Below are positions 7,090-10,331 of a stretch of 40,734 bases of DNA, piece after piece. The DNA lies in NCBI GenBank assembly GCA_000934665.2, contig JYFJ02003501.1:1-40734 (forward strand), given 5' to 3'. A program made the translations under genes and the position numbers. Source of the DNA: Catajapyx aquilonaris (taxonomy: Eukaryota). Position 1 is the first letter of the stretch. Each line of letters opens with the position of its first letter. The notes under the pieces are model-generated. The model did no database searches. It was not told the origin of the DNA and saw only the letters and a list, made by a program, of their open reading frames with translations.

Positions 7090-7473
7090 CTAATGCAAGC
7101 AATACTGCCTCCTCTCATGCACTGTGCACAACTCCCCTTTGAAGTCGATTTCAGTTGTGATGTCAAGATCTCGACGATTACGGGCGTTAGGGTGGAGAGA
7201 CAACGTGCCTGTGATGATCTCATCACGCATGCCCGTCAAGCATTGGTCGAAAGGAAATATGGTCTGCTGCCAGTGACTATATGGTGCTGAGGGAGCAGTC
7301 GTGAAGCTTACATGCTTGTGGCTTGTGAATTCCACCTTGAAGTAAGTCACAAGAGCATGCATGTTGTGACCATCTAAGAGCTGAAGAGAAAATGGAGCTT
7401 GAAAGCATAAGGCATCCTTTTGCTTTGCCTCATACAAGTCCACTTTCTTGAGGGTGCATGAGTTGGTGACAAC
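7090..7473 (-). CDS. PRMT1-like exon 4 (beta-barrel, THW loop)
   Basis: tttgcag acceptor; [14 protein letters not shown]...SHWQQT...YCLH*. Confidence 0.9.
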   Translation of the reverse strand, partial: VVTNSCTLKKVDLYEAKQKDALCFQAPFSLQLLDGHNMHALVTYFKVEFTSHKHVSFTTAPSAPYSHWQQTIFPFDQCLTGMRDEIITGTLSLHPNARNRRDLDITTEIDFKGELCTVHERRQYCLH

Positions 7474-10331
7474 CTGCAAAAATCAAGTTCAGGACATCAG
7501 ATGTGGATAAGTCATGACACTCCATGAATGCTCACCTTGTCATGGTCAACAGTGTCAATGATTGGCTCTTCAGTGACCATCTCCCTGATGCAACTCATGT
7601 CAAAGTCATACACGTCATCCCACCAGTCAATCAGTTCTTCCTTGTATTGCTCATCTTCAATCCCACAAATGTATAAGGTAGCTTTGTCTGGAAATATGTA
7701 CCCTCCCTTCTTCAGCCACTTGTCACGCGCATATAGGACCGTATCCAGCATGGATTCATGAAATAGGCAATAGCCCATCCAGTTCGAGATAATGATGTCA
7801 ACTTCTTTGTAGCCATCAGGTAGTTCTACTTCTTCCACCTTTCCCTTGACGACAGTGATCACACTGGTTAAGTTGTTGTCTGCAATGATTTCCTCGGCAT
7901 GCTGTGCAATGCCAGAACACTCCACTGCGAACACACGTGCTGCTCCAGCTCGAGCTGCAAACATGGATAGGACCCCAAGCCCACATCCCACGTCCATCAC
8001 AACTTTGCCCTGAAATGAAAAGGTGCTGCACAGTTCTGTCTGGAATGGCCCCCATTCTTGAATTTTCACTTTTTAGTTTCTACCCTCCCCTCTGGTGTCC
8101 TCAAGAAGGTACCCCCGCGAGCATAAAGATAGAGACGGCAGGCCCTTTTTTGACCTTTTGTTATCAGACTCAAATTAATGAACTCTTTTTGGACCGAGTT
8201 AGCTGCCGCAGGCGTGTATTCATGTATTTATGACAGTATATTTGATACTGTAATTGCTGAGATTGGCAGAGCAGCCTGCCGAAGGTGAGGGCCTGCCGTC
8301 TCCATCTTTATGCTCGCAGGTGTACCTCTAGTGTGGGTCATCTAATGTCCCTGTATATCACTGACACACTGATTCAACTAAATGTGAAGCCTATCGGCAG
8401 TCCTCTTTACACAGGACATGAAGCCCCCCAACTAAACATGCAACGTACAATGTAAAATATTCCCAGCCTCCCCCTATTAAGCTGCATTTACATGTGAGCA
8501 ATTTGATGAGCGATGTCATCGCTGAGGGGAGCAAACTTAACAAAAGCCGTGATTTGGGCTGAAAGTAGCAATCGCGTTTAAGAAGGGTCAGGTCTGTTTG
8601 AAATAGACGAAGGCGAAGTCGTACATCGCCGCACATCACTGGGTATCCATGGTGCCATAAACAATCTGAACAATGAGGGAACAAAATTAGAACAATATAA
8701 ACAATCTTCGTGCGGGCAATGCCGTTGGCATGCCGTAGCGATGCACATCACCAGCTGGTAAACACATACGTGATACGTAAGTGCTATCGCTCGAGTCATT
8801 ACGTCAGAACCTCTACATTTCCCTTCGCTCAGCGATGACATCGCTGCACTTCCCTGATCAAATCGCTCCCATGTAAATGCTGCTTTAGCCCTTATTACTC
8901 CAACATGTTGAGCCAATGGGGAAATGCACCAACACTGTTACCACTTTTGCTCTAATGGCATTCAAATTTGGTGGGTGGGTAACTGAGGGCTATCTGAAGC
9001 ATTAGCAGGATTCTTCATTATTGCCATTTTCATTCACTGTCATTTCAATTTCATCCTTGTACAGTGCATGAGAAATGCGCAATTGAACATGGCCATTTTA
9101 AACACAACCCAAAAATGGCTTCCCTCTTTAATGCAACTACTGTATTACCTCACTTAAAGTGGCATGTCACCATAAAACCAGGTCGACCAGCATGCCGGTA
9201 TAACCCGGGCGTGGCCAGCATGCCACAATAGCTGAGGTGGATTTCCATAATTTTGATCATTGTCTAATTTTTTGGAATACATGTGTACTAAAATAATGTC
9301 ACAGTGAAAAATGTGAGAGTACAGGGCTGTGAGAATATGCAAGTTCATCTGTTGAACAGGTCATAGAGTGTGATCAATCCCACTGTCAGCCTGCTCTGAG
9401 CAGGGAACCCCCCTAAACATTACAAGGACCCAGGCAAATGCCTTCAGTCCTTTGTTTTGCTCATTAGTTCGATGGTCACAGATCTCGTTGGCAATCAGAG
9501 GATCACATTGTGTAGTGGTATCAATTTGTCTGAGAATTTGTCTCAGGTAATAAAATCAAAACCCAACGTATGAAATATCCTGGTAGGTATGTTTCCCTTC
9601 TTGCAGCCTTGCACTTTTAATTGAAAATGTTGCAGTGAAATTTGAACTTAACGAATGGTCTTATGGGATGTGTCAGGCAATAGAAGTGTCCTGGGCTGTA
9701 TCCGCACCGTAGAAAATGGGTATAATGCATTCATTTTAGTAATAATAATTTTCAGCGATCTTGATAATGCTGTGGTTAAGAAAACCGCGCCTTATACCGG
9801 CATACCTCGCTTAGACCCGCAAGCCGGTATAGCCTTCAGATTGTGCATTTCTAAAAACTGGTCAACCTCGACTACACCGGCATGCCACTTTCAGTGAGGT
9901 AATACGGTATTTTGTACCAAACAATATTTTAGTGGGCATTGCAGAAATATCAAATACCTTGAATATGTCACGGTTGTTGCACATAGCATTATAATATGCT
10001 AACGGTGGTGTCTTGTCCTTCAAGAAATCTTCATGCGGATCAAAATGGGCATAACAATCAAAGTAGTAATCTTCAGAGGTCATGTCGAGTACATTAACAC
10101 AAGGCTTTTTCTTTCCATTGCCCTCCTTTGACTTACTGCTGTCAGATCCTGTGTGCACTTCCTGGTAAGTAAGCAAAGAATAACAACATCAGTCAGCAGT
10201 ACTGTGTATGCCTCCAGGACATCATTAAGTATTTTTCAGGCGCACTGCGTACATGTTGGCAAACTCCAGAGCTCACAAACTATACATACCGCCCCACACT
10301 TAGGCTGCTCGGAAATCTTATCCTCCTCCAT
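7090..10331 (-). CDS. PRMT1: Divergent PRMT1-like protein arginine N-methyltransferase, 367 aa, exons 10331-10290, 10161-9958, 8009-7536, 7473-7090
   Basis: All introns are GT-AG and phase 0, with an open frame to TAG at 7092-7090. Motifs: DYYFDCY (YFxxY), VMDVGCGLG (motif I), VFAVE (post-I), [16 protein letters not shown](N)[11 protein letters not shown] (motif II/double-E loop), [10 protein letters not shown] (motif III), PYSHWQQT (THW loop), RDLDI. Probably a paralog rather than the main PRMT1 ortholog. Confidence 0.9.
7536..8009 (-). CDS. PRMT1-like exon 3 (SAM-binding Rossmann fold and dimerisation arm)
   Basis: tttcag acceptor and GTGAG donor; [12 protein letters not shown]...VDHDK. 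Confidence 0.92.
8105..8329. mobile_element. Unclassified MITE in PRMT intron 2
   Basis: ~40-bp TIR AGGTACxCCxGCGAGCATAAAGATxGAGACGGCAGGCCCT at 8107-8146, inverted at 8288-8327. Confidence 0.7.
8480..8884. mobile_element. PIF/Harbinger-like MITE
   Basis: TTA at 8477-8479 and 8885-8887; TIR AGCTGCATTTACATG / CATGTAAATGCTGCT, plus subterminal inverted GCGATGTCATCGCTGAG. Confidence 0.72.
9958..10161 (-). CDS. PRMT1-like exon 2 (helices alphaX-alphaZ)
   Basis: ttaccag acceptor and GTATTT donor; [24 protein letters not shown]...NRDIFK. Confidence 0.9.
10290..10331 (-). CDS. PRMT1-like first coding exon ([14 protein letters not shown])
   Basis: GTCATGG Kozak context; GTATGT donor; phase-0 join to exon 2. 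Confidence 0.7.

Follow-up and report, generated by a model that had tools for sequence, protein, structure and literature searches.

Contig JYFJ02003501.1 of the Catajapyx aquilonaris assembly GCA_000934665.2 was analysed over its full 40,734 nucleotides, a stretch referred to here as the window. Its minus strand carries an intact gene of the PRMT1 type, in whose product the residues corresponding to Glu144 and Arg54 of rat PRMT1 are replaced by Asn and Pro. Judging from the sequence, the best explanation is a PRMT1-derived protein kept by selection for a role other than normal type I arginine methylation, most likely as a dead or very weak pseudo-methyltransferase; we would give this explanation an even chance of being right.

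The gene was rebuilt from the window as four exons running from 10331 to 7090, with 1104 nt that encode 367 codons and a stop. The frame has no internal stops and ends with TAG at 7092-7090. All three introns have GT/AG borders, with donors GTATGT, GTATTT and GTGAGC and acceptors that all end in AG. The parts of the gene are as follows, in order of transcription.

To at least ~10374, minus strand: 5' untranslated region, suggested by the depth bins (~10289-10374, 86 letters of record 32) of X5, the contigs of a second sample from another study
10290..10331, minus strand: exon 1, 14 codons from the ATG at 10331-10329, donor GTATGT
10162..10289, minus strand: intron 1, 128 nt, GT..AG
9958..10161, minus strand: exon 2, 68 codons with the YFxxY motif, the alpha-Y and alpha-Z lid helices and KDKTPP with Pro66
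8010..9957, minus strand: intron 2, 1948 nt, mostly three elements bounded by inverted repeats
7536..8009, minus strand: exon 3, 158 codons with the Rossmann core, the double-E loop (Asn158, His166, Glu167) and the dimerization arm
7474..7535, minus strand: intron 3, 62 nt, GT..AG
7090..7473, minus strand: exon 4, 127 codons and TAG, with the beta-barrel and SHWQQT instead of the THWKQT loop

Each of the three larger coding pieces finds its best solved relatives among PRMT1 and PRMT8. Exon 3 matches PDB chains of PRMT8 at E 2.6e-64 and of PRMT1 at E 3e-62, while exon 2 is closest to rat PRMT1 (E 1.6e-12) and exon 4 to PRMT8 (E 8.9e-37). The Pfam family PF22528, which describes the PRMT oligomerization region and beta-barrel with its dimerization arm, is found in exon 3 (8.3e-15) and exon 4 (2.1e-29), and generic methyltransferase domains of Pfam also match the protein. 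The Rossmann core of the methyltransferases that use S-adenosylmethionine (SAM) is present, and its motif I (DVGCGLG) and post-I motif (AVECS) align to the PRMT1 and PRMT8 chains. Over 155 aligned residues exon 3 shows no deletion relative to these chains and a 2-residue insertion before the double-E loop. A protein atlas search returned family-level look-alikes only.

The two active-site substitutions are read directly from the codons. The codon at 7784-7782 is AAC (Asn158), giving ISNWMG in the window where the PDB chains of PRMT1 and PRMT8 have ISEWMG, and the codon at 10008-10006 is CCA (Pro66), giving KDKTPP where rat PRMT1 chains have KDEVRT. AAC lies two changes away from either Glu codon, and CCA is one change from the Arg codon CGA. 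The first Glu of the double-E loop is therefore lost and the second is retained as Glu167. We take R54, E144 and E153 to be the rat numbers of these residues, as assigned by motif. In agreement with this numbering, rat W197, Y202 and M206, which are named in PMC10908127 (this and the other papers cited below are cited from excerpts), fall on W, Y and M in the window protein. According to PMC3748068, E144 orients the substrate guanidinium and accepts the proton, R54 bonds both SAM and E144, and PRMT1 cannot do without R54 or either of the two glutamates; E144Q has served elsewhere as an inactive form of PRMT1 (PMC10517134).

Among the 120 nearest database proteins Glu occurs at all 124 instances of the SEWMG-type motif and Arg at all 119 instances of the KDxxRT-type motif (two of the 120 proteins had no match to the latter pattern), so the replacements in the window are more than chance. 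Nor are they base-call or assembly errors, since both codons are unchanged in contigs from two samples. DNA-run contigs of one sample, which may be the assembly's own source, cover 6800-8135 and 9857-10700 with 0 differences. The X5 contigs likewise show 0 differences on 7706-7866 (record 27), 9958-10160 (record 32) and 7034-7324 (record 26). The first-pass annotation of the window had called the gene intact, had read Glu144 as Asn (AAC) and Arg54 as Pro (CCA), had thought a base-call error unlikely pending a check of the codons, and had listed Glu153, Met155, YFxxY, DVGxGxG and the ribose-binding Glu as kept. The rebuilt model, the PDB alignments and the contigs of both samples bear out all of these readings.

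That the two residues go together, as the same annotation had proposed from their interaction, agrees with what is seen in other proteins. The 150 best cluster representatives (50% identity clusters) were examined, and both positions could be aligned in 115 of them, with the following combinations.

Arg54 Arg, Glu144 Glu: 103 representatives
Arg54 Arg, Glu144 Asp: 4 representatives
Arg54 Arg, Glu144 Gln: 1 representative
Arg54 not Arg, Glu144 Glu: 0 representatives
Arg54 not Arg, Glu144 not Glu: 7 representatives

The pair is thus lost in 7 of 115 and Arg54 is never lost alone (Fisher p 1.8e-8, uncorrected for relatedness; two of the seven look related). The seven representatives are P0166, P0193, P0229, P0230, P0249, P0264 and P0265. 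P0229 is XP_067635154.1, a 'PRMT1-B-like' protein of the tephritid fly Eurosta solidaginis, with Cys and Asn at the pair and Gln at the second Glu; the unnamed P0249 has Ser and Asn at the Arg54 and Glu144 positions. Identity to the window protein is low throughout the seven (35-44%), and six of them are nearer to canonical insect PRMT1, which makes their losses look independent of the one in the window; P0193 is slightly nearer to the window protein (36.7%) than to canonical insect PRMT1 (33.6%). PRMT1-like proteins with the lost pair therefore already sit uncharacterised in public data. Co-loss points to a repeatable route to PRMT pseudoenzymes and offers a simple rule for finding them.

Around the two substitutions the protein is a mixture of retained and rewritten parts. 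Retained are YFxxY (as YFDCY), DVGxGxG (as DVGCGLG), the ribose Glu (E112), the second loop Glu (E167) and Met169, and the THW loop reads SHW, with Thr changed to Ser, His307-Trp308 in place and THWK turned into SHWQ. Ten of the 12 cofactor-contact positions named for PRMT1-type enzymes (list from 10.1101/776112) are kept, and so are the equivalents of rat Y39, H45, D76, G78, G80, E100, C101, V128, E129, M155 and T158. The hydrophobic arm residues W197, Y202 and M206, mutation of which breaks dimers (PMC10908127), are also retained. Further near-invariant positions, missed in the first-pass annotation, have changed (rat Y152H, M48F, G43D, I44P, T55P, E52K, T81L and K295Q). Of these, T81L replaces the invariant Thr of motif I (GxGTG) by Leu, and Y152H adjoins the second Glu.

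The extent of this remodelling was measured in an alignment of the window protein with 127 relatives, which remained of 133 once six distorted gene models had been set aside. The window protein departs from the consensus as follows.

Invariant columns: 11 of 86
Columns conserved at 95-100%: 24 of 78
Columns conserved at 80-95%: 25 of 50
Columns conserved at 50-80%: 42 of 79
Most variable columns: 39 of 57

At columns conserved at 95% or more the window protein departs in 35 of 164 cases, whereas the 127 relatives, tested alike, have a median of 1 and a maximum of 17. The departures are concentrated in residues 50-80: of the 24 highly conserved columns there, 13 have changed, compared with 22 of 140 in the rest of the protein (p 1.2e-4). 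These residues make up the N-terminal helices that follow YFxxY, which serve SAM binding and dimerization and receive the arm of the partner (10.1101/776112). In the window protein these SAM-covering, arm-receiving helices are heavily rewritten, and the remodelling is far wider than two residues. Median identity of the window protein to 20 named relatives is 55.1% (range 52.5-58%), compared with 74.3% among those relatives.

The changes nevertheless avoid the conserved columns, unlike neutral decay, which would strike all classes equally: the gradient of departures across the five conservation classes has a chi-square of 56.1 (4 degrees of freedom, p 1.9e-11). In neutral simulations that allowed substitutions only, the frame stayed open in 34 of 2000 runs (1.7%) at 20% amino-acid divergence, in 17 of 2000 (0.85%) at 25% and in 0 of 2000 at 40%. 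The excess divergence of the window protein over canonical PRMT1 pairs is about 20-25 points, and indels and six splice signals would lower survival further, so that an open frame is rarely expected under neutral drift. As far as sequence patterns can tell, this suggests a fold still under constraint rather than one that is randomly decaying.

A spliced transcript may also be represented in X5. Its record 32, a contig of 289 letters, has the first 203 of them on 9958-10160 and so begins exactly at the border of exon 2. Depth bins beyond exon 2 are 2.24 and 1.77 at a contig depth of 6.1 and fit the remaining 86 letters on ~10289-10374. From its length and the depth bins, the record appears to skip intron 1 and to join exon 1 and the 5' untranslated region to exon 2, a joint that is not among the 15 X5 joints listed (13 more exist). 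Several unique stretches of the introns and parts of exons 3 and 4 are left uncovered by X5, a gap that was not used as evidence. The gene is probably expressed. With regard to the earlier proposal of a selected function instead of random decay, the constraint pattern, the open frame and the spliced-looking contig all speak for it, while its focus on two residues has to give way to a much wider remodelling.

With Glu144, which has roles in guanidinium positioning and proton acceptance, and Arg54, the partner of Glu144 and of the SAM carboxylate, both missing from the active site, arginine methyl transfer would be expected to fall by orders of magnitude. Since the elements for dimer and oligomer formation are preserved, the window protein would most plausibly act by oligomerizing, either with itself or with an active PRMT, and this could tune the partner's activity or its choice of substrate. 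It might alternatively bind RGG-type substrates without modifying them. There is precedent in PRMT1 itself, as subunits of the dead mutant E153Q, when mixed into oligomers with the wild-type enzyme, increase the kcat of the latter 2.6-fold (PMC11681865).

Several points weigh against a selected, non-catalytic role. The second Glu, Met155 and the His-Trp of the THW loop are all retained, which makes residual or altered catalysis possible. In the dimerization arm three conserved polar positions differ (rat R188E, K194L and G203D), and normal oligomerization is not assured. With 11 of 86 invariant columns changed, constraint has clearly been relaxed, and the gradient test cannot date the constraint it detects. 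The run type of X5 is not on record, and a spliced-looking contig could come from a DNA retrocopy. Finally, no ortholog was found among the matches listed from 5.8 billion clustered proteins or 1.84 billion representatives. The search with exon 3 against longer proteins gave 4812 matches at E <=1e-30, of which the best undistorted ones listed were canonical PRMT1s at 70-71% identity; exon 4 gave 14 matches among 57 word-sharing candidates, the best 56% identical, and the best match in the representatives library was 69% identical. Six top-scoring 'PRMT1' entries (P0001-P0004, P0006 and P0007, from Ephemera, Phthorimaea, Mytilus, Sinocyclocheilus, Camelus and Oryza) contain internally duplicated blocks and are probably assembly or annotation artefacts that inflate search scores.

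The retained residues could also belong to a still-active methyltransferase with a changed mechanism or acceptor, one that would produce another rate or product state on arginine or use another nucleophile. Asn and Pro are neutral replacements for charged Glu and Arg, so that the net charge is unchanged, and Glu167, Met169 and His307-Trp308 remain. Ten of 12 cofactor contacts, the second loop Glu, motif I and the ribose Glu are likewise in place, the changes cluster at the pocket lid, as expected if the pocket were being reshaped, and the frame is constrained. However, both glutamates and R54 are called indispensable in PRMT1 (PMC3748068) and E144Q serves as a dead mutant (PMC10517134), while the motif I change from Thr to Leu and M48F would be expected to interfere with SAM binding. 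Excerpts of the literature on PRMT mutants and pseudoenzymes, subscription journals being outside its scope, yielded no characterised PRMT that has Asn at the Glu144 position. On its sequence we regard such an enzyme as unlikely.

The origin of the gene bears on how its changes are to be read. A tree was built from 40 named and 18 unnamed proteins, 58 in all out of 133, omitting the six distorted gene models and, for speed, 69 others. The window protein sits on an end branch of 4.45 against a median of 0.2, and no supported clade holds it. The label 'paralog' given there to the window gene is an unproven assumption. Divergent from the PRMT-type gene, on the other strand of the window, lies an ARID4-like gene that serves as a synteny anchor.

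23381..31702, plus strand: ARID4/hat-trick-like gene
23381-23743, plus strand: its ARID exon or exons
28407-28745, plus strand: its Tudor-knot/chromo-barrel exon
29273-31702, plus strand: its long low-complexity exon, 809 codons that include Ser/Pro/Lys repeats, a long stretch of prolines and, at 31641, the only N of the window

The chromo-barrel domain of ARID4 is 54-68% identical to those of eleven insects of other orders, whose own inter-order pairs mostly lie at 53-74%, and the best ARID4 matches, at 64-66% identity, come from a cockroach and stick insects, which puts the source of the window among insects or hexapods but near none that are annotated. Since the divergence of this neighbour is ordinary, the acceleration is specific to the PRMT-type gene.

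Linkage of PRMT1 and ARID4 appears to extend across insect orders (pairs P0119/P0381, P0027/P0394, P0062/P0340, P0034/P0358 and P0122/P0371). In Menopon gallinae the locus tags of a canonical PRMT1 and an ARID protein are neighbours (007614 and 007613). In four other insects the PRMT1 and ARID4 proteins share an identical longest-contig size (Chelonus, 604,042; Ceratina, 1,348,088; Lasius, 11,217,724; Tribolium, 25,071,153), which shows linkage, not adjacency. No mention of this linkage was met in the literature on PRMTs, in which no search aimed at it was made. Because the two genes are linked in other insects, the window gene may be a positional ortholog at an ancestral locus. With ARID4 as its head-to-head neighbour, it seems to lie where insect PRMT1 stood ancestrally; it may be either the parent of a duplicated copy or the only ortholog, the latter status being somewhere between unlikely and quite unlikely.

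Instead of a paralog, the gene could then be the positional ortholog of PRMT1 (insect Art1) and possibly the only PRMT1 of the genome. Beyond its place beside ARID4, its intron positions (before GKVV and before VVTN) match block borders of a mayfly PRMT1 model. A tblastn search of the whole window with two insect PRMT1 proteins matched only the PRMT-type exons above noise and revealed no second PRMT-like piece. Set against this, PRMT1 is among the most conserved animal enzymes and both residues are kept in all 120 nearest proteins, a branch 20 times longer is what a redundant duplicate usually shows, and duplicated canonical PRMT1 does occur in insects, as in Macrosteles with two. We hold this origin to be improbable. 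Doubtful to a further degree is the related scenario of the lineage's only PRMT1 at the ancestral PRMT1-ARID4 locus, in which bulk asymmetric methylation would proceed through a one-glutamate site or would have passed to another PRMT, with PRMT1 kept for non-catalytic reasons.

Early decay would make the open frame and any transcript mere leftovers of a gene that lost catalysis first and whose constraint is now fading. The very long branch, the changes at 11 of the 86 invariant columns and at 24 of the 78 near-invariant ones, the failure of database searches to find an ortholog with the same changes, and the low contig depth in X5 (2.2-6.1 on exon pieces, in one possibly RNA-derived run) would all fit such a history. 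Yet the changes strongly avoid conserved columns, the frame survives in few neutral runs at comparable divergence even before indels and the six splice signals are counted, the splice sites are all canonical, and both key codons are identical in two samples. We consider decay quite unlikely. A retrocopy origin is ruled out by the intron positions shared with the mayfly PRMT1 model.

Other features of the window lie within or beside the PRMT-type gene. The three elements of intron 2 (8107-8327, 8479-8885 and 9135-9912) have inverted repeats of 32-40 nt at their ends and resemble miniature inverted-repeat transposable elements. Summed contig depth over them reaches ~35,000, compared with ~30 on exons and flanking unique sequence, indicating element families that are very abundant in the genome. 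Upstream of the PRMT-type gene, facing ARID4, the stretch 10375-10900 contains a palindromic TGACGTCA (10506-10513) and a CCAAT box near 10752, and it may be a promoter region shared with ARID4. On the plus strand at 2282-2668, ~4.4 kb past the 3' end of the PRMT coding sequence, is a terminal exon with a C3HC4 RING finger (Pfam PF13920, E 7.4e-12).

In animal cells PRMT1 is the main source of asymmetric dimethylarginine. Its non-catalytic roles have, to our knowledge, so far been studied only through engineered mutants and in trypanosomes. An animal PRMT1 that is natural, intact, probably expressed and yet lacks the pair would be a ready-made test of such roles, whether as oligomer partner, as activator or brake of active PRMTs, or as binder of RGG proteins. 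If the window gene were truly the only PRMT1 of its genome, it would also bear on the dispensability of PRMT1 catalysis in an animal lineage.

Compared with canonical PRMT1 and PRMT8 (rat 1OR8/1ORI, human 6NT2, PRMT8 5DST/4X41; insect Art1), which are the best sequence match for its three large exons, the window protein has the same length class and domain order and keeps the motifs, the arm core and the beta-barrel. It differs in having Asn, Pro, His, Phe and Leu in place of Glu144, Arg54, Tyr152, Met48 and the motif I Thr. Like the seven degenerate PRMT1-like proteins it has lost both Arg54 and Glu144, and P0229 and P0249 share its Asn; several of those proteins lack the second Glu, which the window protein keeps.

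As a kind, naturally dead relatives of PRMT1 are already known: the trypanosome prozyme is an example, and uncharacterised proteins with the same losses occur in insects and elsewhere. In excerpts of the literature on pseudoenzymes, mutants and insect Art/DART paralogs (subscription journals being outside its scope), natural dead PRMTs were represented only by the prozymes of kinetoplastids and by the pseudo-modules that PRMT7 and PRMT9 carry in cis. The C-terminal pseudo-modules of PRMT7 and PRMT9, DNMT3L and METTL14 are catalysis-lacking folds that serve as structural or regulatory partners (PMC10908127), similar to the role proposed for the window protein. However, PRMT7 and PRMT9 carry their modules fused in cis, and DNMT3L and METTL14 belong to other families, whereas the window protein is a free-standing PRMT1-type chain. 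The PRMT1 prozyme of Trypanosoma brucei (TbPRMT1 PRO, PDB 6DNZ chain B) is a dead paralog that heteromerizes with active PRMT1 and is needed by it (10.1101/776112; PMC10908127). The window protein resembles it as a full-length PRMT1-type chain that lacks residues on which catalysis depends and keeps a dimerization arm, but is not its ortholog, as 6dnz_B matches exon 3 at E 2.5e-24 against 3e-62 for PRMT1. The prozyme loses cofactor binding through the absence of the eta2 3-10 helix in its Rossmann fold (10.1101/776112), a loss that is not matched in the window, where the Rossmann core aligns to PRMT1 without deletion. By its sequence, the window protein is a candidate for a free-standing animal pseudoenzyme of the PRMT1 type, apparently situated at the PRMT1 locus, that would have reached inactivity by a route unlike that of the trypanosome prozyme.

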